This document shows positions 2,064 to 61,388 of a stretch of 64,000 nt of DNA, piece by piece. Under the pieces are notes generated by a model that had not been told where the DNA came from, did no database searches, and saw only the letters and a list, made by a program, of their open reading frames with translations. Positions within the stretch are counted from its first letter, which is position 1, and each line of letters starts with the position of its first letter. Source of the stretch: Dehalococcoidia bacterium. GTDB taxonomy: Bacteria > Chloroflexota > Dehalococcoidia > UBA6926. The translations under genes and the position numbers were made by a program. The stretch spans positions 23,137-87,136 of the forward strand of contig OZ250138.1 of NCBI GenBank assembly GCA_965237465.1, in the 5' to 3' direction.

Positions 2064-3353
2064 CTAGCTGGGGCTAGTGCTCATGGCCAGCGTGCCCGCG
2101 GAGACGGGAAGCACGCCGTGCGTCACTGCGACCTCTGCCTTGATGGTGACTTGCCGCTCGCCTGCGCGTCCCTGCAGCTGCTCAAGCGGGTCGGTGATGA
2201 ACACGGTTCGCATGCGTCCCGTGCCCATGTTGCCGCCGCCGGAGTTGAGCGGATTGGGGCCCTTCAGGCTAATGTCGCCGGCGTAGAAGTCGTGCGCCTC
2301 GCCGCGCTTGACGCCGCGCCATCCAAAGGCCTCAAGGAAGTACTGTGTGAACACTGCGAACCCGTCATAGGGCGCGAAGATGTCGATGTCCTCAGGCTTG
2401 AGGCCGGACCCGTTGTAGGACCGCTGCGCCTGGATGTCCGTCCACTCTTCCGTGTCATCGATGGTTTGGACCAGGCTTCGCGGCTGGAAGCCGCTCTGCG
2501 TGTGGTCAAGAATGTAGACGGGCTTCTGCTGCATGTCCCTGGCGCGCTCAGCCGTCGTGACGACGTAGGCCGCCGCAGCGAGAACGGGGCGGTCGCAATC
2601 GAAGATGCTGAGGTCGCGGGCGATCATTCGACCATTGAGGTAGTCCTCTTCGGTGAACTCGCCGGGCTCATGCTGCGCATAGTAGCTGTGCGGCCAGAGC
2701 TGGCCGTTCTTGCGCTCCTGCACCACAAACGGGGCCATGCCATCATGGGTCTTCCCGTACTTCTGGCAGTACTGGTTGAATGTGAAACCCTGGCCGGAGA
2801 GTCCCCAGCCCCAGGTATTCGGCCAGACGGCGGGTCCGCGGGCCTCATTGGTGGGGTCCTGATGATACCGGCCCGGCAGGTTGCCGGCGGGGTAGGTGAC
2901 CAGGACAACCTCTGCGCGGCCATCGCCGACAGCCTGGGCAGCCTGCCCTATGAGGTTCCAGATCGGGTCGCCGTGGTTGTTGATGTAGCGGATGTTCTTC
3001 ATGCCCATCTGATTTCGGAGCCACTGACCGGTGACGTGGGTCAGGCCGTCCTCAGAGTCATAGGGCGGGTCAAAGTAGGGCCGGGGGCCCCAGACATCGC
3101 TCAGAGGCTGGCCGTTGCCCTGGCCGCCCGCGGATCCAACGATGCCATCAACATCGTCGATGGTGAGCCCGGCGTCGTCGAGCGCATTCTGCGCGGCGGT
3201 CATCATGAACGCGCCAAGGGACTCATCAAGAGTCTCGCCGTCCCAGCGGCGCTCCGTGCGGGAGTGTCCTCGCGCGACCAACGCCACCTTGCCCCGGTAG
3301 GGCCAGAGACCGACGGGGTCGTGATTTCGCTCCCAGTTGACTTCACGTGCCAT
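2064..3353 (-). CDS. Thiolase-fold (SCP2/nsLTP-type) protein lacking the canonical Cys nucleophile, copy 1
   Basis: N-terminal thiolase pattern (KVALVARG...AAQNALDDAGLTIDDVDGIVGS). The canonical N-x-x-C-A-S-G position reads YINNHGDP, and there is no C-terminal Cys-His pair (NSGGGNMGTG). Followed by a DUF35 partner gene. Confidence 0.8.
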   Translation of the reverse strand: MAREVNWERNHDPVGLWPYRGKVALVARGHSRTERRWDGETLDESLGAFMMTAAQNALDDAGLTIDDVDGIVGSAGGQGNGQPLSDVWGPRPYFDPPYDSEDGLTHVTGQWLRNQMGMKNIRYINNHGDPIWNLIGQAAQAVGDGRAEVVLVTYPAGNLPGRYHQDPTNEARGPAVWPNTWGWGLSGQGFTFNQYCQKYGKTHDGMAPFVVQERKNGQLWPHSYYAQHEPGEFTEEDYLNGRMIARDLSIFDCDRPVLAAAAYVVTTAERARDMQQKPVYILDHTQSGFQPRSLVQTIDDTEEWTDIQAQRSYNGSGLKPEDIDIFAPYDGFAVFTQYFLEAFGWRGVKRGEAHDFYAGDISLKGPNPLNSGGGNMGTGRMRTVFITDPLEQLQGRAGERQVTIKAEVAVTHGVLPVSAGTLAMSTSPS

Positions 3354-4111: not shown

Positions 4112-5401
4112 CTAGTCGGGGCTAGTGCTCATGGCCAGCGTGCCCGCGGTAACGGGGAGCACGCCGTGCGTCACTGCAACCTCAGCCTTGGTTGTGACCT
4201 GCCGCTCGCCTGCGCGTCCCTGCAGCTGCTCAAGCGGGTCGGTGATGAACACGGTTCGCATGCGTCCCGTGCCCATGTTGCCGCCGCCGGAGTTGAGCGG
4301 GTTGGGACCCTTCAGGCTGATGTCGCCGGCGTAGAAGTCGTGCGCTTCGCCGCGCTTGACGCCGCGCCATCCAAAGGCCTCAAGGAAGTACTGTGTGAAC
4401 ACTGCGAACCCGTCATAGGGCGCGAAGATGTCGATGTCCTCAGGCTTGAGGCCGGACCCGTTGTAGGACCGCTGCGCCTGGATGTCCGTCCACTCTTCCG
4501 TGTCATCGATGGTCTGGACCAGGCTTCGCGGCTGGAAGCCGCTCTGCGTGTGGTCAAGGATGTAGACAGGCTTCTGCTTCATGTCCCTGGCGCGCTCAGC
4601 CGTCGTGACGACGTAGGCCGCCGCAGCGAGAACGGGGCGGTCACAATCGAAGATGCTGAGGTCGCGGGCGATCATTCGACCATTGAGGTAGTCCTCTTCG
4701 GTGAACTCGCCGGGCTCATGCTGCGCATAGTAGCTGTGCGGCCACAGCAGGCCGTTCTTGCGCTCCTGCACCACAAACGGGGCCATGCCATCATGGGTCT
4801 TCCCGTACTTCTGGCAGTACTGGTTGAATGTGAAACCCTGGCCGGAGAGTCCCCAGCCCCAGGTATTCGGCCAGACGGCGGGTCCGCGGGCCTCATTGGT
4901 GGGGTCCTGATGATACCGACCCGGCAGGTTGCCGGCGGGGTAGGTGACCAGGACAACCTCTGCGCGGCCATCGCCGACAGCCTGCGCGGCTTGCCCGATG
5001 AGGTTCCAGATCGGGTCGCCATGGTTGTTGACGTAGCGGATGTTCTTCATGCCCATCTGATTTCGGAGCCACTGACCGGTGACGTGGGTCAGGCCGTCCT
5101 CAGAGTCATAGGGCGGGTCAAAAAAGGGTCGAGGGGCCCAGACGTCGCTCAAGGGGGCGCCGCCTGGCTGTCCGCCCGCGGACCCGACAATGCCATCGAC
5201 TTCGTCGACGGTTATGCCGGCGTCGTCGAGGGCGTTCTGTGCGGCTGTCATCATGAACGCGCCAAGGGACTCATCAAGGGTCTCGCCGTCCCAGCGGCGC
5301 TCCGTGCGGGAGTGTCCTCGCGCGACCAACGCCACCTTGCCCCGGTAGGGCCAGAGACCGACGGGATCGTGATTTCGCTCCCAATTGACTTCACGTGCCA
5401 T
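4112..5401 (-). CDS. Thiolase-fold protein lacking the canonical Cys nucleophile, copy 2 (about 97% aa identity to copy 1)
   Basis: Same length (429 aa) and near-identical sequence to 2064..3353, with scattered substitutions. Confidence 0.8.
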   Translation of the reverse strand: MAREVNWERNHDPVGLWPYRGKVALVARGHSRTERRWDGETLDESLGAFMMTAAQNALDDAGITVDEVDGIVGSAGGQPGGAPLSDVWAPRPFFDPPYDSEDGLTHVTGQWLRNQMGMKNIRYVNNHGDPIWNLIGQAAQAVGDGRAEVVLVTYPAGNLPGRYHQDPTNEARGPAVWPNTWGWGLSGQGFTFNQYCQKYGKTHDGMAPFVVQERKNGLLWPHSYYAQHEPGEFTEEDYLNGRMIARDLSIFDCDRPVLAAAAYVVTTAERARDMKQKPVYILDHTQSGFQPRSLVQTIDDTEEWTDIQAQRSYNGSGLKPEDIDIFAPYDGFAVFTQYFLEAFGWRGVKRGEAHDFYAGDISLKGPNPLNSGGGNMGTGRMRTVFITDPLEQLQGRAGERQVTTKAEVAVTHGVLPVTAGTLAMSTSPD

Positions 5402-5490: not shown

Positions 5491-5922
5491 TCAGGAGACG
5501 ATTTTCCACTCAGGAATCATGACGCCGGGCGCTGCCTCGACGAACATGACCTCGACGGTCGCGCCGACGGGGATGTCGGGATCGCCCTGGATGTTCGCGC
5601 CAAAGTCCTCCTCCAGGTTGGAGTGGAAGTTGATAAGCGCGTCCTCTTCCAACGCGACAATGGCGTTAATGAAGGGCTGCTTGGGGTGCCACTGAACCAG
5701 GCGGGAGTCAAACGTCATGGAGTAGCCGACGATCCTGGCTCGTCCACTGGTCTCCTGCCAGCTCAGATGGAAATTGAAGCCGCAGTCGCGGCAGACGGGC
5801 TCAGGCGGAAACTGCCTGCGGTCGCACATTGAGCAGTACTGAACGATGAGCTTGCCCTCGTTGCAGGCATCCCAAAAGGGCTTGCTCGCCGGATCTGGAA
5901 CTGGAACAATCGGTCGTGCCAT
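5491..5922 (-). CDS. DUF35 OB-fold / Zn-ribbon protein, copy 2 (100% aa identity to copy 1)
   Basis: The 143-aa ORF is identical in protein sequence to copy 1 from MARPIVPV onward. Only a few synonymous nucleotide differences separate the copies. Confidence 0.75.
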   Translation of the reverse strand: MARPIVPVPDPASKPFWDACNEGKLIVQYCSMCDRRQFPPEPVCRDCGFNFHLSWQETSGRARIVGYSMTFDSRLVQWHPKQPFINAIVALEEDALINFHSNLEEDFGANIQGDPDIPVGATVEVMFVEAAPGVMIPEWKIVS

Positions 5923-6066
5923 TTCTACCCCCTCCTCGGCATATGCTTATTGCCGACGAAACGTAGCATCCCGCCGTTGCCTGTGTCAATCAGACGTGAA
6001 CCGGCGCCGCCTACGCAAGCGCGGGGGCGGCGCCGGTCCTTGCCAGAGCTGATCTGAAGGACTGGC

Positions 6067-7791
6067 CTAGCTGCCTGAGGCCTGAATTCGCTCCGCCTGC
6101 ACGGTTAGAGCGGCAAACTCTGCGACGTCGCTATCGTCCGGCAATAGCCGCCGGAGCCGCTCGGCCTCGGCAACAACATCCTCGAGGCTGCCCTCTCTCG
6201 CCCAGTAGCTATCCCGCAAAATCTCCGCATATTCGGCCACGACGGCGGAAAGCTGGTAGCGCGCCGGCGCATTCTCAAACTGGTCTGAGAGACTGTTGCC
6301 TGAGAAGGTGTGTTGAATCTCGCTTACACCGCCCGTGTCGGGGTCTTCATACCGCACATAGACGGTGGCTAGGGCGGCGTCAGTTGGGCCGTCGTCTTGC
6401 AGCTTGTATTCGTAGAGCGCTGTCACGGTGTGTCCGGCGCCGACCTCGCCCGCGTCCACCGTGTCATCCCGGAAGTCCTCATCCGCCACGTCCCGATTCT
6501 CGTAGCCGAGCAACCGGTAGCTGCGCACGACGTCTTCATTGAAGACCACTTGCACCTTCGTATCCTTCGCGATGTTCTGGAGCGTGCCTGTCAGGTCGTC
6601 CACAAAGACGCGCCGCGCCTCCGCGATCGTGTCAACGTAGAAGTACGCGCCGTCGCCGTCATTCGCCAGCTGCTCCATCAGCACGTCGTTGAAGTTGGAC
6701 ATGCCGAACCCAACGGTGGTGAGCGTGACGCCCTCATCGACGTATTCGCGGACCTCGTTCAGGATTGAATCCGCCCCGGTGCGGCCAACGTTGCCAACGC
6801 CGTCCGACAACAGGATGACGCGCGTGATCCTGTCCGAATCCACCTCGCCGGCGGCCATTATGTACGCTAACTTCAGCCCGTCCTCAACGTAGGTGGAACC
6901 GCCCGACTGCAACCTATTGATTGCATTGATTATGGACGATCTCTCCCCGCCGTCCGTCGGCTCCAGCAATACGAATCCACGATCCCCGTAGATGACGATG
7001 CCAACCTCATCCGTGCGCCTCAATTCATCGACCAGCAGGCCCAGGGAGCGCTTTACCAGGCCGAGGCGGCCCTCCCCGGCCATGGAGCCGGACACGTCAA
7101 TCGCAAAGATGAGGGTTGCGTCCTTTCTGTCATCTGACGAAATGACTTCACCCTGCAGGCCGATGCGAAGCATCTTGTGGTTGTCCAGACCGAACCTGGA
7201 GGGAGAGCCATCCACGATGATGTTGAAAGCGCCCTCGGTCGGCGGCGTGTACCCTTGCTCGAAGTAGTTGATGAACTCCTCGACGCGCACAGAGTCGTTG
7301 TTCGGGAGATAGCCGTCCTGCACGTATGCCCGCGCTACGCTGTATGATGCCGTGTCCACGTCAATAGCAAACGTGGAAAGGTTGTCGTCCTCCGTGTCAA
7401 TAAACGGATTGACGCCGTAGTTCTTGAAGAAAGTCAGGTCATAGGCTTCGTCATTGACAATCGCCGAGCCGCCGATGGCGTTGAATCCCTCCCTGGAATC
7501 TGTCACGTAGATCGTCTGGGGAGCGTCCCATGATTCAGCGACCAAATTGTAAGATGCGCCAGAAGCCTGTGTTGGTCCCACGTATTCGCTTTGGGCCTCC
7601 AGCTGCGGACTCGTCCCGGAGAGGGCAGTCACACCCCCTCCCCCTCCACTCGAAACCAATCCCGATTCGCCGCTGAGCATAAGTACAGCCGGATCGCCGC
7701 CAGCGAACCTAAAGTACGTAAACACGACCAGCGTTATGCCAAAAAGCGTGAGCGCCGCCAGCAGCATCTTGCGTGTCATAAGTCGCCACAT
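6067..7791 (-). CDS. YfbK-like von Willebrand factor A domain protein with an N-terminal TM anchor
   Basis: N-terminal hydrophobic helix. The YfbK-type N-domain motif reads STFAIDVDTASYSVARAYVQDGYLPNNDSVRVEEFINYF. The VWA MIDAS motif is DVSGSM...SGGST...LLSDG. RBS GGGGTGA lies before the ATG at 7791. Confidence 0.8.
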   Translation of the reverse strand: MWRLMTRKMLLAALTLFGITLVVFTYFRFAGGDPAVLMLSGESGLVSSGGGGGVTALSGTSPQLEAQSEYVGPTQASGASYNLVAESWDAPQTIYVTDSREGFNAIGGSAIVNDEAYDLTFFKNYGVNPFIDTEDDNLSTFAIDVDTASYSVARAYVQDGYLPNNDSVRVEEFINYFEQGYTPPTEGAFNIIVDGSPSRFGLDNHKMLRIGLQGEVISSDDRKDATLIFAIDVSGSMAGEGRLGLVKRSLGLLVDELRRTDEVGIVIYGDRGFVLLEPTDGGERSSIINAINRLQSGGSTYVEDGLKLAYIMAAGEVDSDRITRVILLSDGVGNVGRTGADSILNEVREYVDEGVTLTTVGFGMSNFNDVLMEQLANDGDGAYFYVDTIAEARRVFVDDLTGTLQNIAKDTKVQVVFNEDVVRSYRLLGYENRDVADEDFRDDTVDAGEVGAGHTVTALYEYKLQDDGPTDAALATVYVRYEDPDTGGVSEIQHTFSGNSLSDQFENAPARYQLSAVVAEYAEILRDSYWAREGSLEDVVAEAERLRRLLPDDSDVAEFAALTVQAERIQASGS

Positions 7792-7937
7792 GAGATTTCA
7801 CCCCTTTTCGCCAGGCTGCTGGATCAGCCGCACCGCGCGCAGACATGACAACCAACGATATGCAGACGTACGGCCCGGCGGGTGCACGAGCCACAACCAC
7901 TATCACGCCGCCTACACCACAATCCGCACAACAAACG

Positions 7938-8050
7938 TGTTGCATTCAGACTGAAACGCGCGACAAACGTGTCGCATTCGGGCACATTTGGCGGACTTTT
8001 AGCGGCACACGTCGGGTAGGCGGCAATTTCTACGCCGAAAGCGCACCACG
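7938..8050 (+). repeat. Degenerate copy of the promoter-proximal region and first codons of the XRE-TPR gene (compare 9988..10100)
   Basis: GTGTTGCATTCAGACTG ... TGTCGCATTCGGGCACATTTGGCGGACT matches GTGTCGCATTCAGACTG ... TGTCGCAATCGCGCACGTTTGGCGAACT at 9988-10048. Weaker similarity continues about 60 bp further (ACGCCGAA block). The frame is broken by TTTTAG. Confidence 0.5.
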
Positions 8051-8196
8051 CCCCTTAAGGCCAGCGACGTCGTTGCGCTAATTTCGTGGGAAACGCCTTA
8101 GCATGGCGCCGCCTAGTCCTCCCGTCATTCCGGCGAAAGGCGGAATGAATCCCGGCTCTCCCATCCCCGCAGAGGCCCCATCCGCGACTCGCGTGT

Positions 8197-8232
8197 TGAC
8201 ATATCCCGCCACTGACCTACATAGAATATTAA
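8197..8232 (+). promoter_or_regulatory. Candidate sigma70-like promoter for the LRR lipoprotein gene
   Basis: Perfect TTGACA at 8197-8202. AT-rich -10 candidates (TACATA / TAGAAT) lie 16-20 bp downstream, so the spacer is ambiguous. Confidence 0.3.
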
Positions 8233-8269
8233 TGCTCGACGGCCAAAACTAAGGTAGGTGACAGCTCCG

Positions 8270-9610
8270 ATGCTCCGCGCTTCCAGATTGCTAACTCTCT
8301 TGCGGAATTGCGCTCCTGCGCTCCTAATGCTCCTTCTGGCCCTGCTCGCAGCATGCGACTCCGGTAACCCCTGCGCCACGCCGCCTTCTGACTCCCCGAG
8401 GCCAGTACAGCCTGCGGTTGTGCTCTTACCTACCGCTACTGTAGAGCCCACGCCCACGGTGGCGCCCACGCCCACGCCGGTTGTTTCGATGTCCGCCGAA
8501 ACGGATCGCCTGGCGCTGATCGCGCTTTACAACGCGACGAATGGCCCCAACTGGATCGACAATACATATTGGCTGAGCGATCAGCCCATCGACACGTGGA
8601 GCGGCGTTACCATCAACAGCAACGGCCGGGTCACTGCACTGCACCTCGGTCAAAACAGGTTGACCGGTGAGATGCCGATAGAGTTGAGCAACCTCGACAA
8701 ATTGGGAGCGATGATCCTCAGCGGAAACGAGTTGAGTGGATCACTGCCGTCGGAGTTGGGCAACCTGACGAACCTGGGAGCGCTGAACCTCAGTAAGAAC
8801 AGGTTGAGCGGGGAGATACCGCCTGAGTTAGGCAATCTAACGAACTTGTCTGAAATAGCCCTTGGTGACAACGGGTTGACTGGCCCGATACCGCCTGGGC
8901 TGGGCAACCTTGCCAGCCTGAGAAACCTGTACCTATACAACAACGATTTGAGCGGCCCGATACCGCCTGAGCTTGGCAACCTTGCCAGCCTGAGAAACCT
9001 GTACCTATACAACAACGATTTGAGCGGCCCGATACCGCCTGAGCTTGGCAACTTTGCCAGCCTTGAGCAATTGATCCTGTACGACAATCGGCTTAGCGGG
9101 GAGATACCGCCTCAGTTGGGTAATCTCGCCAGTCTCACGTTGTTGAGACTCAATGGCAACGAATTGAGCGGGGAGATACCACCTGAGCTGGGCAACTTCG
9201 CCAGCCTTGAGCAATTGATCCTCTACGACAACGAGTTGAGCGGAGAGATACCGCCTGAGTTGGGGAATCTGCCAATGCTGGTAACGCTGAACCTCTTCAA
9301 TAACGAGTTGAACGGTGAAATACCATCTGAGTTGGCAGGTCTCGCAAACCTGGAGACGCTGTCCCTTGGCGTGAACCACTTTAGCGGGGCGCTGCCGTCG
9401 AGGTTGGCGAATCTCGCCAAACTTGAGGTGCTAAACGTCAGCAGGAACCGGTTGAGCGGGACGATACCTTCGGAGATCGGCAATCTCGCCAACCTGCACG
9501 ATCTGAGGGTTAACGAGAGCGGATTGAGAGGGTGTATACCGGCCAATTTGCAAGCCCAGCTGAGCTCTGTTTCCAAGTTGGGTGGGCTGCCGTACTGCCC
9601 GGCGCCCTAG
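8270..9610 (+). CDS. Leucine-rich-repeat lipoprotein (plant-type 24-residue LRRs)
   Basis: Signal peptide with lipobox LLAAC. There are more than 12 tandem LxxLxLxxNxLSGxIPxELGNLxx repeats. ATG 8270 (MLRAS) is preferred over the GTG at 8258, which abuts the AAGGTAGG RBS. Confidence 0.8.
   Translation: MLRASRLLTLLRNCAPALLMLLLALLAACDSGNPCATPPSDSPRPVQPAVVLLPTATVEPTPTVAPTPTPVVSMSAETDRLALIALYNATNGPNWIDNTYWLSDQPIDTWSGVTINSNGRVTALHLGQNRLTGEMPIELSNLDKLGAMILSGNELSGSLPSELGNLTNLGALNLSKNRLSGEIPPELGNLTNLSEIALGDNGLTGPIPPGLGNLASLRNLYLYNNDLSGPIPPELGNLASLRNLYLYNNDLSGPIPPELGNFASLEQLILYDNRLSGEIPPQLGNLASLTLLRLNGNELSGEIPPELGNFASLEQLILYDNELSGEIPPELGNLPMLVTLNLFNNELNGEIPSELAGLANLETLSLGVNHFSGALPSRLANLAKLEVLNVSRNRLSGTIPSEIGNLANLHDLRVNESGLRGCIPANLQAQLSSVSKLGGLPYCPAP
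8909..9052 (+). repeat. Perfect 2 x 72-bp tandem repeat inside the LRR gene
   Basis: 8909-8980 is identical to 8981-9052 (one LRR unit each, LASLRNLYLYNNDLSGPIPPELGN). A third diverged unit follows. Confidence 0.9.
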
Positions 9611-9963
9611 CAGCTAACCGCTCTCAGAGTGCAGCGACTGTGGGACGAGAGCGGTAGGACCGGGGTTCTCGTCGGGCGTCGCAGACGGAGCGACGGTGGG
9701 GCTTCTTGACTGCTTCGGCGGGTCTCACCCTCTCCATGGGGTGATTGCGGCCATCAGGTCGTGACGCTTGGCCGCTCTTTGCCCAGCGGAACGGCCGCCG
9801 ATTGCTGGCGGCCGCGAAACGTGTCAATTCGCTGGCGTTTCCCCTAGGAAAGTCGCAAGCGTGGCCAACTACGTCGTCAGCGGCAACTGCCAACAGCCAT
9901 GCCTCGCTGCCGCCCGCTGCCGTGCTACTTCGGTCGGCGGCCACACAGCCGCCGGCACGCCCA

Positions 9964-10031
9964 TTGACGTACAATCTTGTATAGAGCCGTGTCGCATTCA
10001 GACTGGACCACGTTTCAAAATGTCGCAATCG
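9964..10031 (+). promoter_or_regulatory. Promoter/operator region of the XRE-TPR gene: TTGACG -35-like box plus TGTCGCA(T/A)TC direct repeats
   Basis: TTGACG sits at 9964. TGTCGCATTC at 9991 and TGTCGCAATC at 10021 (the second overlaps the start codon) are 30 bp apart. The same motif pair recurs at 7941 and 7969. Confidence 0.4.
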
Positions 10032-12014
10032 CGCACGTTTGGCGAACTCCTGTCGACATACATGGCTCGGACGGGCATTGGCGACGCCGAACTCGCGCGC
10101 CGGATCCCGGTCAATCGCCTTACGCTCGTGCGTTGGCGGGAAGGAGTTACAGGCCGGCCGCGCCACCGCAGCGACGTCCTGCGTTGCGCGGAGCTGCTCC
10201 GGCTAACGTCTGAGGAGCGGGATGAACTCCTCGCCGCCGCCGGTTTTCCGCCGGAAGCTGCGCCGGCTGCCGCTGTCCCGCCTGCCTCTCAGCCTTCCGA
10301 GCCTGCCCCGCCCGCTACCGCGCCGCTGCCTTCTCCCGTAACGCCACCCGCCGCGCCGCTTGATCCCATTGCGCCGGTGATAGCCGATGGCGCCGCCATG
10401 TTCGTGCGGCCCCGTCAAGCCGCCAGTCGCCTCAGGCGGATCGTTTTTGTCTCAGCGGCGGTAATGTTAGGTGTGTTGGTTGTCCTGGCGGCAATTGTCA
10501 TCACGACGCGAGACACGCTGACCTACCCCGTAGCCGGAGATGGCGAATCGCTGATCATCCTTGCGCCATTTGAGAACTACACGACAGGCGCGCAGGGATT
10601 CAACGTTGCAGGCCGTCTCCGGGAGGGGATCGATGCCGCTCTAGCTGAGGCCGAACTCCCAAGAACGCGCACCGCGGAATGGCCCACTTCGATCAAGACC
10701 GAGGAAGACGCCGGGCGCGCCGTGGAACGATCCTACGCGGCGTTCATCATCTGGGGCGAATACGATAGCGGGCGTGTTGTGGCCCGCTTTACGATGCCGG
10801 ATGGCCTGGGAACGGGCGGCGCGGATCAGATAGTAGACATTGCATCCACTCCCTCTGAACTGCCGGCGGTGATCAATGTCGGTCTCTCCGGTCAGGTGCA
10901 ACACTTCACCCTCGTCACGCTCGCTGTTTACTATCTGGAACAGAACGACTTTGACATGGCCAAGGCGGTGTTAATCAAGGCCCTGAGCCCTCTGCCATCC
11001 GATTCGGCAGAGCAGTCTCACGTTCTTTATTTGTTGGGGAACGCGTATCTGGGGGGAGCGCTACGCGACTACGATGAGGCGATCTGGCGATTCACGCAGG
11101 TGCTCTCAAACCAGCCTTGGTCCGTGGAAGCATTAAATGGCCGGGCCCTCGGATACCTGGGGCGAGAGCGGGACGGCGACGTCGTTCACGCTTTGATTGA
11201 CCTCGATCGCGCTGTTTCCATCGAGCCGGATCGCCCTGCCACGCACCTGAATCTGGCCGTGGCGTTCATGCAGCGGGGCGGGATTGGCGACACAGACAAC
11301 GCGCTCGGCGCATTGAATGATGCTCTATCGCTGGACGATGGCTATGCGGCGGCGTACGCAAGCCGCGCCGGAGTGTATCTGGCGAGGGACGAAAGCGGGG
11401 ACGTTGAACAGGCCTTTGAAGATGTGGCAATGGCGCTGGAGATTCGGGATGATCTTTCATCGGCTCTTCTGATTTACGGCCACGCCTACATCGCGCGCGA
11501 CAGGCAGGGAGACGTTGCGCGCGCTATTGGGCAATTCACACGCGCGGCGCAGCTTGAACCGGACGCGCCCGCGCCATACTACTATCGGGGTCTCGCTCAC
11601 TCCGCGCGCCAGGACATTCAGACTTCTGTATTGGATCTGTGGCACGCGCAGGGCCTTGACCCCCTGAAAGCGAACTACAGCCGCGCCCTGTGCCTACAGC
11701 TTGGCATTTTCGGACAGGCGGATGAAGCGACGACGCATTGCGATCTGGCGGTTGCGGCAGCTCCCGGAGAACTGACGTCGGACAGCCGCGGAATTGTGAA
11801 TGCGCGCCTAGGTCGATATAAGGAAGCAATCGCTGATTTTGAGGCCGTCCTGGACTGGGCGGACGCCTTCGGCAATCCGGTGTGCGGACAAGACTTTCGG
11901 GAAACACGCCTCAGGTGGATCGATGCGCTTGAGGCCGGCCGGAATCCACTGACGACACGGCTATTGCCAGAACTGCGGCCATTGCCGACGATTCCGGGCC
12001 GCCAACCGTGCTGA
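10020..12014 (+). CDS. Membrane-anchored transcriptional regulator: N-terminal XRE-type HTH, Pro-rich linker, one TM helix, extracytoplasmic TPR domain
   Basis: HTH: RTFGELLSTYMARTGIGDAELARRIPVNRLTLVRWREG. TM: IVFVSAAVMLGVLVVLAAIVITT. There are multiple TPR-like repeats. Start chosen at ATG 10020 (MSQSRTFGELL); the 9768 extension is Cys-rich and implausible. Confidence 0.7.
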   Translation: MSQSRTFGELLSTYMARTGIGDAELARRIPVNRLTLVRWREGVTGRPRHRSDVLRCAELLRLTSEERDELLAAAGFPPEAAPAAAVPPASQPSEPAPPATAPLPSPVTPPAAPLDPIAPVIADGAAMFVRPRQAASRLRRIVFVSAAVMLGVLVVLAAIVITTRDTLTYPVAGDGESLIILAPFENYTTGAQGFNVAGRLREGIDAALAEAELPRTRTAEWPTSIKTEEDAGRAVERSYAAFIIWGEYDSGRVVARFTMPDGLGTGGADQIVDIASTPSELPAVINVGLSGQVQHFTLVTLAVYYLEQNDFDMAKAVLIKALSPLPSDSAEQSHVLYLLGNAYLGGALRDYDEAIWRFTQVLSNQPWSVEALNGRALGYLGRERDGDVVHALIDLDRAVSIEPDRPATHLNLAVAFMQRGGIGDTDNALGALNDALSLDDGYAAAYASRAGVYLARDESGDVEQAFEDVAMALEIRDDLSSALLIYGHAYIARDRQGDVARAIGQFTRAAQLEPDAPAPYYYRGLAHSARQDIQTSVLDLWHAQGLDPLKANYSRALCLQLGIFGQADEATTHCDLAVAAAPGELTSDSRGIVNARLGRYKEAIADFEAVLDWADAFGNPVCGQDFRETRLRWIDALEAGRNPLTTRLLPELRPLPTIPGRQPC

Positions 12015-12025
12015 TTCGATAACGC

Positions 12026-12063
12026 AAGTCGGCCCGGCTGCCCTTCATAGGCAGCCGGGCCGA
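12026..12063. terminator. Bidirectional terminator between convergent genes (16-bp perfect stem)
   Basis: AGTCGGCCCGGCTGCC ttcata GGCAGCCGGGCCGACT. Confidence 0.6.
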
Positions 12064-12146
12064 CTTAGTCTCGCCTTAGAAAGCGACGGCTACGAAGGAA
12101 CCTCCGTCGCGAGAACGAGCGACGACATGTCGCTTATATATCCCCG

Positions 12147-13256
12147 TCAAGTGTTGACGAAGCAAACGTCATGCTTGGGGACCTGGTGACCTTCGGCGCG
12201 TCCCATGAGCTGGCGTACCGCCTCGACAACCTGTGTCGTGCCGGCGGTGGACTGGCCGTTGGAAAGCTGGCCTCCGCCGGTGTTCACCGGGAAATCCCCT
12301 CCCCAGGTCGTGTCGTGCTCCTCGTAGAACGGTCCTGCTGTTCCCTTGGGGAAGAAGCCGGAGTCCTCCAGCGTGATCATCACTGTGATTGTGTAGCAGT
12401 CGTACATCTGCGCCATGTCCATGTCGCGCGGCCCAAGCCCGGCCATCTGGAAGGCGTTCTTGGCGGACACGGTGCACGGGGATGTCGTGATGCGTCCCAC
12501 CCAGTCGACGCCATGCTCCGCTCGCAGGTTGTGCTGCCCGGCGCCGAGCAAATAGACGGGTGGATTGCGCAACGCGCGCGCCCGCTCCGGCGTGGTGACG
12601 ATTGTCGCCGCCGCTCCCTGGGCCGGCATAACGCACTCAAGCAGCCTTAGCGGGTCAGCAACATAGCGGGAATTTAGGATGTCCTCTTCATTGGCGGGCT
12701 GGCCGTTGAAGAAGGCCTTCTCATTCCCCTGCGCGTTGAAACGCTGATCCGCCGCCACGCGCGCCCTCTGAAAGTCCGTCGTGCCGTACTCGAAACCGTG
12801 TCGACGCGCGATCTGCGCGTACCAGCCATTGGCCGCGACAACGGGGCCGAACGGCGTAACAAACTGTGGGTCGACGTGATCCGGCGCCGGCGCGTACATT
12901 CCGGGCGTCGACGAGACGGGCCCGGCGCCATTGATGCACAAGATGGTGTCCGCGTAACCGGCGTTGATGGCCGCCGCGGCCACAGAAACAAAGCTGGCGG
13001 CGTTCTCGTTCAGCGCAGTCGCAAAGTTCGGCTGAATGCCGACATACTCCGCAAAGTCATAGGCGAAGCCCAGGCTCGGCAGACCGAATGGCGGCTCTGC
13101 AATGATGCCGTTGATGTCTTCCTTGCGAATACCTGCGTCGGCTATCGCCCCGGCCGCTGTCTCCGCGTACATCCCCATGAAGTGGCGCCCCGCGTATGAC
13201 CGCCGATGCTGCAGCTCATGGAATCCGGCTATTGCAGCCTTTCCTCGTATCGACAT
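12147..13256 (-). CDS. Third thiolase-fold paralog lacking the Cys nucleophile (no adjacent DUF35)
   Basis: SCP2-thiolase-like N-terminus. The nucleophile position reads NENAASF, with Ala in place of Cys. The C-terminal region is NTGGGQLSNGQSTAG, with no His. Start at ATG 13256 (MSIRGKAAIAG) with GAGGAG RBS. Confidence 0.75.
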   Translation of the reverse strand: MSIRGKAAIAGFHELQHRRSYAGRHFMGMYAETAAGAIADAGIRKEDINGIIAEPPFGLPSLGFAYDFAEYVGIQPNFATALNENAASFVSVAAAAINAGYADTILCINGAGPVSSTPGMYAPAPDHVDPQFVTPFGPVVAANGWYAQIARRHGFEYGTTDFQRARVAADQRFNAQGNEKAFFNGQPANEEDILNSRYVADPLRLLECVMPAQGAAATIVTTPERARALRNPPVYLLGAGQHNLRAEHGVDWVGRITTSPCTVSAKNAFQMAGLGPRDMDMAQMYDCYTITVMITLEDSGFFPKGTAGPFYEEHDTTWGGDFPVNTGGGQLSNGQSTAGTTQVVEAVRQLMGRAEGHQVPKHDVCFVNT

Positions 13257-13433
13257 CTGCGTTCTCCTCAGGCGCGACGCCTCCGTCCTGGCGTCGCATC
13301 GTCCGGACATATCCGCTAATCCGTATGGTGCTGCAACATACCGCCGCTGTCAATGCGCCGACAGCTTCCCCCGCTTGTGGACACGCCCGCCCTCTACTAC
13401 AATCACCTGAGCATCACGAACACATGTGCTTCC

Positions 13434-14132
13434 ATGACTTACCGCCGCGGAAACGAATCGGAGCTCACATACGCCCTCAAGTGGGCCGCGTGGCAGTGGA
13501 TGTATGTCTCAGCCCAGTGCCGCATCATCGGCTTTGAGGTTTCTTTGGAGGGTCCCGGCGGGCGCATTGTTGATCTCGCGGGCATTGGCCCGGATAAGGC
13601 CCTCTACGTGGTTGAAGTAAAGTCCTCGCGCTCCGATTTTCGGCGAGACGACCATGACGGACGCGACCGCGAGCGATTGCGGGAACAGGAAGAGACGCTT
13701 GACCGGGTGTCCGCCTTCGTTGAGGAAACCGCGCGCGAGGCCCAGGGAGAGGAGTCTGCTCAGCAGGCAACGCTTGACGCGGAGCTGATCGAGCGCAGGA
13801 TAACGAACCTTCGCTCCCGCTCAAACAATTTGAGCACCAAGTTCCATGACCCGCGGTTTATCCGTATCGCCGACTACAACTATGTAATGGCCCCGGTCCG
13901 TGCCGTTCGCCGATCGAACCTTCCCCCGCTGTGGGGACTTTTGTCGCCGACCCCGACTCCGAATGTTGTCGTGCAGGCGCCGCGCACGGGCGGCGGCAGG
14001 CCAACTCACATGTATGCGGCTATTCTCAGGGCGATCTCGCGGGCCAACACGCGCGACATGATGCGCGGTCACGGAGTTCAGTGGACGCGCCGCGGAGCTG
14101 AATTTCCTGACTCGGAGAAGGAACCGGAGTAG
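13434..14132 (+). CDS. PD-(D/E)xK nuclease-fold protein, MmcB-like, with a long C-terminal extension
   Basis: RIVDLAGIGPD...YVVEVKSSRSDF matches the D...EVK pattern of MmcB/DUF1052-type nucleases. The start is uncertain (ATG 13434, no clear RBS). Confidence 0.45.
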   Translation: MTYRRGNESELTYALKWAAWQWMYVSAQCRIIGFEVSLEGPGGRIVDLAGIGPDKALYVVEVKSSRSDFRRDDHDGRDRERLREQEETLDRVSAFVEETAREAQGEESAQQATLDAELIERRITNLRSRSNNLSTKFHDPRFIRIADYNYVMAPVRAVRRSNLPPLWGLLSPTPTPNVVVQAPRTGGGRPTHMYAAILRAISRANTRDMMRGHGVQWTRRGAEFPDSEKEPE

Positions 14133-30113: not shown

Positions 30114-30668
30114 TTAGCGGGGAGTCGGAGGCGGCGCGCCAACCAGGACGGGACCCCGCCACGCGCCATCCCTGGAAATATTCTCGTCCTTCGTCAGGGC
30201 CACAAGTCCCGTGCGCATCAGCTCAAGGACATCGTACGGCTCCAGCAGGGCCAACAGGCTCTCCACTTGCTCCGTTGTGCCTGTCATCTCAATAATCACT
30301 GTCTTGGGCGAGACGCTGACAACCTCAGCGCCCTTGAAAAGGTCCAATATCTCGACGATCTGGCCGCGTGTCTCCCGTGTCGCGCGCACCTTGATCAAGG
30401 CCGTCTCGCGCGCCACATAGTCTTCGTCGGTGATGTCCATGACCTCTACGACGTCCACCACGTTGAACAGCTGAGACGTTACCTGGTAGAGCGCCGATTC
30501 CGGCACGTTGTCGACGACGATAGTCATGCGCGAAAAATCCGGTCGCTCTGATTGCCCCACTGCGAGGCTGGCGATGTTGAAATTGCGGCGCCGAAACATG
30601 CTCGCAACCCGATTCAGTACGCCCGGCCTGTCGTGGACCAAGGCGGAAATGACCCGTCGCATCGTCAT
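30114..30668 (-). CDS. ilvN: Acetolactate synthase small (regulatory) subunit
   Basis: ACT domain pattern. ATGA overlap with the ilvB stop. Confidence 0.85.
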   Translation of the reverse strand: MTMRRVISALVHDRPGVLNRVASMFRRRNFNIASLAVGQSERPDFSRMTIVVDNVPESALYQVTSQLFNVVDVVEVMDITDEDYVARETALIKVRATRETRGQIVEILDLFKGAEVVSVSPKTVIIEMTGTTEQVESLLALLEPYDVLELMRTGLVALTKDENISRDGAWRGPVLVGAPPPTPR

Positions 30669-32386
30669 CGCGTCATTGCCTCGGTCGGTTTCGGATTCAT
30701 CTCTGGATCCTCGACCATCTCCTTGACGGATTGACCCGCCGGAATCATCGGATAAACCAGCTCGTCAACCTCCACCATGAACTCAATGATCACCGGGCCA
30801 TCGTAGTCCTGCGCCTGCTTGATCGCGGCATCGACGTCCTTTATGTCATCAACGCGGATGCCGAGCATCCCGTACGCCTCGGCCAGCTTAACAAAGTCCG
30901 GCCCTGTTGTTTCAATCTGGCTATAGCGTTTGTCGTAGAACAGCGTTTGCCACTGGCGAACCATGCCGTGGTGCTGGTTGTTCATGATCGCGAACTTCAC
31001 CGGCGCTCGTTCATCCCGAATCGTGGCCAACTCTTGCAGCGTCATCTGGAAACCGGCATCGCCGCAGATCGACCACACCTGCTCCTCGGGCCTGCCCATC
31101 TGCGCGCCCAGCGCCGCGGGCACCTCATAGCCCATGGTGCCGAGGCCGCCCGACGTGATAAAGCTATTCGGCTGGTCTGTGACGTAGTGCTGTGCGGCCC
31201 ACATCTGATGCTGGCCGACGCCGGTTACGATGAATGCCTTGCCGTCCGTGGCCTCATGGATCCGCTTGATGACGTACTGCGTCGACGGCTTCCCGCCAAA
31301 ATCTCTGACGATCAGAGGGTGTTCCCGCCGCAGATCGTCCACGCGGGATAGCCACTCGGGTCGAGCGGTCTGCTCGACGAGGGGCAGCAGCGCATTGAGA
31401 GAGTTCTTTGCATCGCCAACCACCGGCGCATGGGCGAACAGGTTCTGATGGATGGCGGATCGGTCGATATTGAGGTGGATTATTTTCGCGCGAGGGGCGA
31501 AGTCCGCGACACGCCCGATGATCCGATCGTCAAATCGGGAGCCGATGTTTATCATCAGATCGCACTCATTGGCGACGAGGTTGGCGAAGGCGGAGCCGTG
31601 CATCCCCATCAGGCTCAGGTGCAGGTAATGCGTGCCGGGGAACGAGCCGATGCCGAGCAACGTTGGAATTACGGGTATCTGCGCCCGCTCCGCCAGTTCC
31701 TTAAGCTCAGCCTCGGCCCCTGCGATAAGCACACCGCGCCCCGCCAAAATGACCGGACGCTCCGCCGATCTGATGAGTTCCGCCGCGTAGCGCACCTGCT
31801 CCGCGTCGGGTTCTGTTATGGGTCTGAATCCTGGCAGGTCATCCACCGTCTTCGGATAGCCCGCGTATTCAGCAACCTCTTGCAGCACGTCGCGGGGAAG
31901 ATCCACCAGGACTGGGCCGGGCCGCGCCGACCGGGCGATGTGAAACGCTTCTTTCATGACGCGCGGAATGTCCGACGCGTTCATGACCAGATAGTTGTGC
32001 TTCGTAACCGGGATCGTAACGCCGGTCACGTCCGTCTCCTGGAACGCGTCCTTTCCGATGGCAGGCCGCGTCACCTGGCCGGTGATGGCCACAATGGGTG
32101 TTGAGTCCATGAATGCGGTGCCTAGGCCGACCGCGAGGTTGATGGCGCCGGGGCCTGATGTGGCGATGCAGACGCCCACGCGTCCTGTGGCGCGGGCGTA
32201 TCCGTCGGCGGCGTGCGCCGCGCCCTGTTCGTGCCGAGTCAGGACATGATGGATGGACGGGTACTTGAGGATGTGGTCATAGAAGGGCAGGATGGCGCCG
32301 CCGGGGACGCCAAAGACGAGGTCAACGCCCTCAGCCTCAAGCGCCTCGCACACCAATTCCCCACCGGCAAGCATCCTGCTCGACAT
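30665..32386 (-). CDS. ilvB: Acetolactate synthase large subunit
   Basis: TPP-enzyme motifs. Start at MSSRMLAGGELV (ATG 32386); the track's 5' extension is unlikely. Confidence 0.85.
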   Translation of the reverse strand: MSSRMLAGGELVCEALEAEGVDLVFGVPGGAILPFYDHILKYPSIHHVLTRHEQGAAHAADGYARATGRVGVCIATSGPGAINLAVGLGTAFMDSTPIVAITGQVTRPAIGKDAFQETDVTGVTIPVTKHNYLVMNASDIPRVMKEAFHIARSARPGPVLVDLPRDVLQEVAEYAGYPKTVDDLPGFRPITEPDAEQVRYAAELIRSAERPVILAGRGVLIAGAEAELKELAERAQIPVIPTLLGIGSFPGTHYLHLSLMGMHGSAFANLVANECDLMINIGSRFDDRIIGRVADFAPRAKIIHLNIDRSAIHQNLFAHAPVVGDAKNSLNALLPLVEQTARPEWLSRVDDLRREHPLIVRDFGGKPSTQYVIKRIHEATDGKAFIVTGVGQHQMWAAQHYVTDQPNSFITSGGLGTMGYEVPAALGAQMGRPEEQVWSICGDAGFQMTLQELATIRDERAPVKFAIMNNQHHGMVRQWQTLFYDKRYSQIETTGPDFVKLAEAYGMLGIRVDDIKDVDAAIKQAQDYDGPVIIEFMVEVDELVYPMIPAGQSVKEMVEDPEMNPKPTEAMTR

Positions 32387-32467
32387 ATCGCTCCTCACTG
32401 CTCGCTCAGCCGCTTCACATGCAGACCCGCACATCCTGGAGAGTCCGCCACGGGGGCCGAACTCCAC

Positions 32468-32790
32468 ATGACCTCAATGGGCGGGTTGCCGAATCGCCCA
32501 ACAAAAAACCCGCCCCATGAAGGGACGGGAGCTCCTGGCAATCCCGCGGTACCACCCTCCTTACCTGGCTATGTCGCCAAGTCGCTCTATGGAGTTTCTA
32601 ACGGACGCCGCTCCGCCGTCGCCCAACTCCACGCCGTTTCTGGCGGCCGGTTACGCCACGGATGCTCCAGGGCGACTTCACGGGTCATCACGACCGGGCT
32701 TGCACCATCCCCGGCTCGCTGTGCGCTAGACTGACGCTACTATTCCCTATCTCAGCAATAATAATTGTGCCATTCGGATTATGGAGTGTC
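32468..32790 (-). promoter_or_regulatory. T-box riboswitch leader of the ilvBNC-leuACDB-cimA operon
   Basis: The minus-strand RNA contains AGGGUGGUACCGCGG (the T-box consensus AANNNGGGUGGNACCGCG) at 32544-32558, followed by terminator 32503-32529. A UGAGA...AGUAG GA-motif lies near the 5' end. Confidence 0.65.
32503..32529 (-). terminator. T-box leader terminator (CCCGUCCC uucau GGGGCGGG UUUUUU)
   Basis: 8-bp stem with one G-U pair and a U6 tract, immediately 3' of the T-box motif on the minus-strand RNA. Confidence 0.65.
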
Positions 32791-61307: not shown

Positions 61308-61388
61308 AGCGGTCTCCTAGAAAGCATTACTGATGTGTAGAAATGTTACACATCATCGGTTATCGGGTCAAACGAGCCGCCACGCGCA

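Follow-up and report, generated by a model that had tools for sequence, protein, structure and literature searches.

Do the three adjacent genes at positions 6067-12014 of a 64,000-nucleotide stretch of Dehalococcoidia DNA (GenBank assembly GCA_965237465.1, contig OZ250138.1, positions 23,137 to 87,136; hereafter the window) work together, and if so, as what? They encode a protein carrying the von Willebrand factor A (VWA) domain, a leucine-rich repeat (LRR) lipoprotein and a protein that combines an XRE-type helix-turn-helix (HTH), a transmembrane (TM) helix and tetratricopeptide repeats (TPRs), which we call the regulator for short. A sequence-only reading had taken all three for one envelope-sensing or adhesion module under the control of the membrane-bound regulator. 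The three open reading frames (ORFs), their domains, the divergent region of ~470 bp between the VWA and LRR genes, its TTGACA box and a repeated motif were all found where that reading had placed them. Dehalococcoidia are abundant and mostly uncultured, and to our knowledge there is hardly any information on the ways in which they sense their environment. We found that the real conserved unit is a divergent two-gene VWA/regulator cassette, present across a large Dehalococcoidia (Chloroflexota) clade.

Related loci were recovered by homology to the regulator. A scan of species-representative genomes gave 266 stretches encoding a relative of it; 80 loci were kept and were examined together with two metagenomic ones. 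All 80 kept loci were from Dehalococcoidia or Chloroflexota metagenome-assembled genomes (MAGs). The regulator family has more than 355 full-length homologs at 43-52% identity, one of them annotated as a Dehalococcoidia MAG protein, and the N-terminal 307 amino acids (aa) used as a query returned 93 representatives at E<=1e-30 among 1.84 billion 50%-identity clusters. By tblastn, 74 of 81 loci have the VWA gene near the regulator, and three loci with weak matches still encode the complete YfbK-type three-domain architecture described below. Unsupervised ORF clustering placed the regulator family in 79 loci, the VWA family in 70 and the next family in only 9. In each of the 70 loci with a full-length VWA ORF, this ORF was on the opposite strand and upstream of the regulator. 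The distance between the two start codons is ~110-165 bp in other genomes, and the length of the segment 7792-7912 of the window agrees with this.

Nothing else around the pair is conserved. The thiolase, the Na/Ca exchanger, FtsH and other neighbours in the window were found in 0-2 loci each. ORF clustering revealed no MoxR, TolQR, sigma/anti-sigma or ABC transporter genes as conserved neighbours (none in more than 9 of 81 loci); nor did it show any family conserved on the downstream side of the regulator, or a conserved small gene nearby. Since all other surroundings have been reshuffled across 80 genomes, the pair appears to be held together, and its conservation against a background without other synteny suggests a function under strong selection. 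These results support a functional link between a membrane-bound regulator and the VWA gene (divergent pair in ~70-74 of 81 loci). Our literature search found no description of an XRE-HTH/TM/TPR regulator paired with a VWA protein, nor of the cassette.

The LRR gene behaves differently. It starts at GTG 8258 or, more likely, at ATG 8270, so that the divergent VWA-LRR intergenic region comprises 7792-8257 or 7792-8269 (466-478 bp). Its product has a signal peptide, MLRASRLLTLLRNCAPALLMLLLALLAAC, which ends in a lipobox (...LLALLAAC, cleavage before DSG), followed by ~12 plant-type 24-residue repeats (LxxLxLxxNxLSGxIPxxLGNLxx; 72-nt period in the DNA) that match LRR_1, LRR_8, LRR_4 and related Pfam models (E 4e-40). 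Only the window and L001, a relative with 85-88% identical proteins, have it between the pair, and it is not there in 79 of 81 related loci; it is therefore a recent insertion and not a member of the cassette. Judged by this comparison, the LRR gene is a recent passenger and no ancestral component.

The proposal that VWA, LRR and regulator form one adhesion or sensing unit controlled by the regulator was consequently rejected as to the LRR gene on synteny: the part of the claimed neighbourhood that stood is the VWA/regulator pair, and the part that fell is the co-occurrence of LRR. As a three-gene unit it is, in our view, highly improbable. The genes are adjacent, all their products are predicted to be extracytoplasmic, and the arrangement is kept in L001. 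In 6-7 other loci, LRR paralogs do occur at distances of up to 6 kb from the cassette, but their positions and strands vary, and a rough estimate suggests that this frequency (~8%) is what chance would give for a multi-copy family. The gene also has a weak promoter candidate of its own, TTGACA (8196-8201, inside the VWA-LRR intergenic region) and TACATA (8218-8223) with a 16-nt spacer, which is conserved in L001. A relic of the regulator promoter with its boxes lies upstream of LRR, making capture into the regulon possible; the LRR gene may now be read either from the relic promoter or from the TTGACA-16-TACATA element.

This relic is what the sequence-only reading had described as a duplicated copy of the regulator's operator-like motif. 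The 64-kb window holds exactly three copies of the 11-mer GTGTYGCATTC (at 7937, 7969 and 9989), where by our estimate ~0.06 exact matches would be expected by chance. Positions 7913-8051 are identical to 9965-10103 at 88 of 140 aligned positions (63%). This copy emerged when 7860-8080 was aligned with 9912-10132; its local alignment score was 42, against 11 +/- 1.4 (maximum 16) in 500 shuffles. The similarity extends over ~140-190 bp and covers the -10-like element of the regulator, both boxes and the first ~28 codons; the relic boxes (TGT..CA type) are at 7937-7947 and 7969-7979. The box-containing stretch is 73% identical to the regulator copy and the former coding stretch 63%. By this alignment, the shared repeat is a decayed segmental duplicate and not a free-standing operator copy.

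The same relic, better preserved (local alignment score 63), is found in L001, suggesting that the duplication predates the split of the two lineages. The simplest account is that the ancestral order was VWA, ~150 bp and regulator, and that a segment of ~1.85 kb bearing the LRR gene was later inserted between them. The insertion would have come with a duplication of the control region and of the regulator 5' end, leaving them on both sides. Because the control region was duplicated at the insertion, the VWA and regulator genes would each have kept boxes. The locus would thus cleanly record how a gene enters a compact bidirectional control region by duplicating it, with the flanking genes keeping their sites.

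It might be argued that the pair is adjacent only because a bidirectional promoter cannot be taken apart, the two proteins being functionally unlinked. The control region is indeed compact (~110-165 bp), and in the window lineage the pair was split only with duplication of the whole region. Against such a frozen accident, the pair persists amid reshuffling in 80 genomes, both products share a cellular location, and in four loci the association has survived the insertion of another gene on the VWA side, which in three cases encodes a second VWA lipoprotein. We consider this explanation very doubtful.

The second VWA lipoprotein is shorter (417 aa) and accompanies the cassette in at least four genomes. 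As an insertion, its gene separates the YfbK-type gene from the regulator in L025, L027 and L042. In L049 its position is downstream of the regulator (8293-9546, + strand of that locus), and it is preceded at 8130-8190 by a TGTGAC/TGTTACA box cluster that resembles the boxes of the control region.

The VWA protein of the window matches vWF_A (PF12450, 84.6 bits), VWA (PF00092, 64 bits) and YfbK_C (PF12034, 122.7 bits). All three scores exceed the curated gathering cut-offs and the domain order is that of the full YfbK architecture; judged by these matches, the protein is a bona fide YfbK-family member. The E. coli YfbK family has the same complete three domains, but the orthologs found here are lipid- or TM-anchored and have a long, variable low-complexity linker between the N-terminal anchor and the vWF_A N-domain. 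A lipobox is present in nearly all of them, whereas the window protein has an anchor helix only, without the lipobox Cys: a single N-terminal hydrophobic helix (aa 9-27) that would serve as membrane anchor or signal. The metal ion-dependent adhesion site (MIDAS) motif, DxSGS...GST...SDG, is intact in the window protein (D-V-S-G-S, GST, LSDG), and its residues are at least 95% conserved among 68 orthologs. With 60-75% identity, the VWA orthologs are better conserved than the regulator. A Shine-Dalgarno (SD)-like AAGGGGTG on the minus strand, within 7792-7912, would serve the VWA gene. None of the papers listed by our literature search deals with YfbK function, so membership of the family gives no mechanism.

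The longest ORF of the regulator runs from 9768 (TTG) to 12014, and the alignment of homologs puts the start at ATG 10020, giving a protein of 664 aa. An AlphaFold2 model built with the family alignment had a mean predicted local distance difference test (pLDDT) score of 82. Its N-terminus is predicted to have a five-helix, lambda-repressor-like fold (helices at aa 7-18, 22-28, 33-41, 50-59 and 64-73; pLDDT 74-92). No part of the family is better conserved than the HTH, whose helix-3 residues are near-invariant in the homolog alignment. It is followed by a Pro-rich, disordered linker (aa ~82-139, pLDDT <50) and by the only TM helix (aa 141-159; Kyte-Doolittle 2.96).

Two features point to the orientation of this helix. 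Across 25 homologs, the 15 residues before it hold 94 Lys or Arg and the 15 after it only 30. Exactly four Cys follow it in 25 of 25 homologs (C558, C574, C622 and C664, all invariant; the codons span 11691-12011 of the window), and C664 is the final residue (...PC*) in all of them, an unusual position for an invariant Cys. The Lys/Arg ratio together with the four invariant Cys indicates a cytoplasmic HTH and an extracytoplasmic C-terminal part, that is, a predicted N-in/C-out single-pass topology with an extracytoplasmic sensor, in which the Cys probably form two disulfides. The earlier reading had placed the HTH in the cytoplasm and the VWA, LRR and TPR domains outside the membrane. Our topology check agrees throughout: the signals or anchors of the first two proteins, and the single TM helix and the Lys/Arg and Cys counts of the regulator, support an outside position of these parts, and the TPR domain is not predicted to be cytoplasmic.

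Beyond the TM helix, the model contains an alpha/beta domain (aa ~175-276), absent from the earlier account, and then a superhelix of ~10 TPRs up to aa ~640 (pLDDT >90), which also gave many Pfam TPR matches. Foldseek with the full-length model, like PDB profile searches, returned only TPR proteins, so a separate sub-model of the alpha/beta domain was needed. This domain has no Pfam match. The sub-model alone (pLDDT 84) gave the N-domain of TolB as its best Foldseek PDB matches (E 1e-5, TMq 0.55-0.61), with PelC, FlgT and LpoB next in line; like TolB, these are envelope proteins. CadC was not among the best 50. Such an envelope-type fold agrees with the N-in/C-out topology. A homolog search with the juxtamembrane domain alone produced four matches and no new architectures. 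The regulator is thus predicted to run from the HTH through linker, TM helix and TolB-N-like domain to the TPRs (Table 1).

The two genes share a control region of ~150 bp with three TGT(n)ACA-type boxes ~30 bp apart: one over the -10-like element, another within the 5' leader and a third that separates the SD-like GAG from the start codon. In the window, the regulator has a -10-like TACAAT at 9970-9975, box A (GTGTCGCATTC) at 9989-9999 and box B (TGTCGCAAT) at 10021-10029, overlapping the ATG start. The order in all loci is GTACA(C/A)T, ACA, TGTnnCAyTC (box A, ~-32), GcGTatCa, SD-like gAG and TGTAaCAnTTG (box B). The GTACA(C/A)T element often sits within a palindrome, GTGTACAC, and most genomes start the regulator gene at the TTG of box B, while the window uses the overlapping ATG instead. 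This block aligns nearly without gaps across 81 loci, although the regulators are only 43-52% identical. Compared with the remaining 1.1 Mb of fetched flanks, the boxes are 200-1600-fold enriched in the interval from -100 to +15, TGTWACAYT specifically ~1600-fold.

Other kinds of element were considered for this block. A structured RNA leader was rejected: RNAalifold placed 0 base pairs in the consensus of -50 to +30 of 81 loci, and Rfam at the gathering threshold gave tRNA and a T-box elsewhere in the window and nothing at the control region. Box-box RNA pairing was also rejected; the near-palindromes pair on paper, but on inspection their central positions do not covary. CRP-like boxes (TGTGA-N6-TCACA) were rejected by eye, without a scan, as no correctly spaced partner half-site was seen. 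The absence of RNA pairs and Rfam matches, together with the 200-1600-fold enrichment, indicates a DNA-level, locus-specific element. The boxes also travel with rearranged genes, being found in the relic beside the VWA gene in the window and L001 and before the second VWA gene in L049. The pattern fits a dedicated operator common to the regulator and VWA genes, and the obvious candidate for the protein that would bind it is the regulator's own near-invariant HTH.

In L028, L030, L037 and L045, where no VWA gene is nearby, box B reads TGCAGCA instead of TGTAACA and box A also deviates; upstream of the regulator, an SBP_bac_5 lipoprotein gene takes the place of VWA in L037 and L045. The window has only one further TGTWACAYT, which falls within a perhaps unrelated palindrome at ~61330-61352 (- strand) with perfect 8-bp arms, GATGTGTA-ACATTTC-TACACATC, just upstream of a small ORF starting MARVQLIIPDDDRDRF. 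Intergenic repeats that contain GTGTGACA, with a period of ~45 nt, are present in L020 (12140-12320, adjoining ABC-transporter and FtsX-permease genes) and L081 (12298-12330); these could be additional binding sites or a tandem repeat without any relation to the boxes.

What would such a cassette do? We regard it as probable, if only just, that it is a membrane-bound one-component regulator of the CadC/ToxR kind with a VWA co-sensor, autoregulated through the boxes. The regulator would be a membrane-tethered transcription factor with its XRE-type HTH in the cytoplasm, and the VWA protein and the TolB-like/TPR ectodomain would jointly form an extracellular sensor, by analogy with ToxR/ToxS, VtrA/VtrC and CadC/LysP. 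A signal would alter the occupancy of the three boxes by the tethered HTH, so that both genes would be autoregulated; a natural guess is that the sensed ligand binds in a MIDAS-dependent manner. The gene pair, topology, folds, MIDAS, boxes, LRR insertion and relic were computed, and from these we infer the binding of the boxes by the HTH, the interaction of the VWA protein with the ectodomain and the signal.

Several observations weigh against this reading. The VWA and regulator genes are divergent, unlike the co-transcribed ToxRS or VtrAC, and 7 of 80 loci (L028, L030, L034, L037, L040, L045 and L054) have a regulator without a VWA gene within 6 kb. HTH_31 matched aa 1-80 of the regulator with 25.9 bits (E 1.2e-5), just below the 27-bit Pfam cut-off, and the best PDB sequence matches of the HTH, to phage 434 repressor, were weak (E 0.2-0.4). 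A comparison of the recognition helix with the boxes in 82 loci was uninformative, both being near-invariant. Without informative covariation, the boxes might instead be sites for another factor, or elements of the core promoter or of translation initiation. Since they overlap the -10-like element and the gap between SD and start, ordinary expression signals could explain part of their conservation. A canonical sigma-70 scan of 5900-12300 gave 0 sites against 1.5 expected, so the promoter assignments (TACAAT/TACACT and TTGACA-16-TACATA) were made by eye and from conservation.

Some of these points would suit a scaffold better than a transcription factor. The HTH-TM-TolB-like-TPR protein could be RodZ-like, its HTH binding a cytoplasmic protein and its ectodomain organising the VWA protein or an envelope structure, with the boxes as promoter or translation signals or as sites of another, soluble regulator. 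RodZ has the same gross layout, with an XRE-type HTH and one TM helix before a C-terminal domain outside the cytoplasm, and its HTH binds MreB rather than DNA. The HTH of the regulator scores below the Pfam threshold and shows no informative covariation with the boxes, and folds of the TolB-N-like, PelC and LpoB kinds typically have structural or assembly roles. However, neither the DUF4115/RodZ C-domain nor HTH_25 was detected in the regulator, and RodZ is not paired with a VWA gene. The HTH, moreover, is the best conserved part of the protein down to its helix-3 residues, and the flexible linker of ~60 aa is like those of CadC and ToxR, which reach DNA. A dedicated operator also fits better than generic promoter signals, because the boxes are near-absent from the 1.1 Mb of flanks and recur upstream of the relocated VWA gene. 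We consider a scaffold unlikely.

The likeness to CadC and ToxR on which the tethered-regulator reading draws lies in the arrangement: a cytoplasmic N-terminal DNA-binding domain, a flexible linker, one TM helix and an extracytoplasmic C-terminal sensor, with no phosphorelay. CadC combines its HTH and TM helix with alpha/beta and TPR-like helical periplasmic subdomains and has a periplasmic disulfide (PMC9214523). The predicted sensor of our regulator likewise has an alpha/beta subdomain followed by a TPR-like helical one. It differs in that the alpha/beta subdomain resembles the TolB N-domain and the TPRs form a long canonical superhelix of ~10 repeats, and the DNA-binding domain is of the XRE/Cro type, with no OmpR/PhoB winged helix and no Trans_reg_C match, so that the regulator does not belong to their family. 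The Chloroflexota host is taken as monoderm, unlike that of CadC.

In co-component systems (ToxR/ToxS, VtrA/VtrC, TcpP/TcpH and PsaE/PsaF), a tethered factor is likewise genetically locked to a second membrane-anchored extracytoplasmic protein, which presumably completes the sensor. Co-component transcription factors retain a disulfide Cys near the C-terminus (PMC9214523), and the invariant C-terminal Cys of the regulator parallels this ToxR-type Cys. The partner here is, by contrast, a YfbK-type VWA protein of ~570 aa and not a small lipocalin-like one, the genes are divergent and neither overlap nor are co-transcribed, and the cassette has no sequence or fold homology to these systems. Possibly, though we hold this more tentatively, the cassette represents an unrecognised co-component class specific to Dehalococcoidia/Chloroflexota. 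The VWA lipoprotein with its MIDAS would capture an extracellular ligand and present it to the ectodomain, and the XRE-type factor would act directly on TGT(n)ACA operators at periodic spacing; the ligand could then be a metal-dependent protein, a glycan or a cation.

Two further families share parts of this arrangement. RRNPP regulators (PlcR, NprR, Rgg and PrgX) also have an XRE HTH and TPRs in one polypeptide. They are soluble cytoplasmic peptide receptors, whereas the regulator has a TM helix and a TolB-like domain between its HTH and its TPRs, which are predicted to be outside; ORF clustering found no small conserved neighbouring gene of the RRNPP pro-peptide kind. VWA and TPR proteins are likewise associated in Bat/aerotolerance-type operons and with the TolQR-associated vWA 'force transducers' that have a TPR gene. 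YfbK-like membrane-tethered vWA proteins are recurrently associated with envelope TPR proteins, with MoxR or TolQR partners, in other phyla (PMC12204202). The cassette differs from such clusters in that no MoxR, DUF58, TolQ/TolR or ExbBD-like genes were found beside the pair in the window or among the families conserved in 81 loci, and in that its TPR protein carries a DNA-binding domain.

Both the pairing and the cis-element are well founded and came as a surprise; the mechanism is what we propose on top of them. If it is true, this would be the first described XRE-class membrane-bound one-component regulator with a VWA co-receptor, and the CadC/ToxR paradigm would reach an XRE-type DNA-binding domain. 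It would also set the YfbK family in a functional context for the first time, and a TolB-N-like plus TPR module would be identified as what presumed monoderm bacteria use for extracellular sensing. Should the mechanism prove wrong, the pair would remain ordinary envelope proteins without an assigned function.

Table 1. Parts of the VWA/regulator locus and of the segment inserted into it (window positions).
Feature	Positions	Strand	Remark
YfbK-type VWA gene	6067-7791	-	574 aa; conserved partner gene of the cassette
VWA-proximal piece of the putative ancestral divergent control region	7792-7912	.	read from sequence
Relic duplicate of regulator promoter, boxes and ~28 decayed HTH codons	7913-8051	+	alignment to 9965-10103
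Candidate LRR promoter TTGACA-16-TACATA	8196-8223	+	by eye; within inserted segment
LRR lipoprotein gene	8270-9610	+	446 aa from ATG 8270
Regulator control region	9965-10029	+	-10-like element, box A, box B; conserved in 81 loci
Regulator XRE-type HTH domain, predicted cytoplasmic	10020-10259	+	aa 1-80
Regulator TM helix, single	10440-10496	+	aa 141-159
Regulator TolB-N-terminal-like alpha/beta domain, predicted extracytoplasmic, juxtamembrane	10542-10847	+	aa ~175-276
Regulator TPR superhelix and C-terminal cap, predicted extracytoplasmic	10851-12014	+	~10 repeats, aa 278-640

Directly adjoining the VWA gene is a recent tandem duplication of ~2 kb: two thiolase-like ORFs (Thiolase_C_1) at 2064-3353 (-) and 4112-5401 (-) are 97% identical over 428 aa, which suggests that segmental duplications arise readily in this neighbourhood. 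The zf-ChsH2 assignment was confirmed for the ORF at 5491-5922 (-), and in L001 a zf-ChsH2/DUF35 ORF lies next to each thiolase-like copy. At 12147-13310 (-) there is a third, more distant thiolase-like gene. The ORF at 13353-14132 (+; 259 aa) has no Pfam match, and tblastn found no counterpart in the fetched loci, L001 being excluded from that count. Farther along the window, a T-box leader (Rfam RF00230, 100.5 bits) at 32518-32762 (-) lies upstream of a 600-aa, acetolactate synthase-like thiamine pyrophosphate enzyme encoded at 30665-32467 (-).

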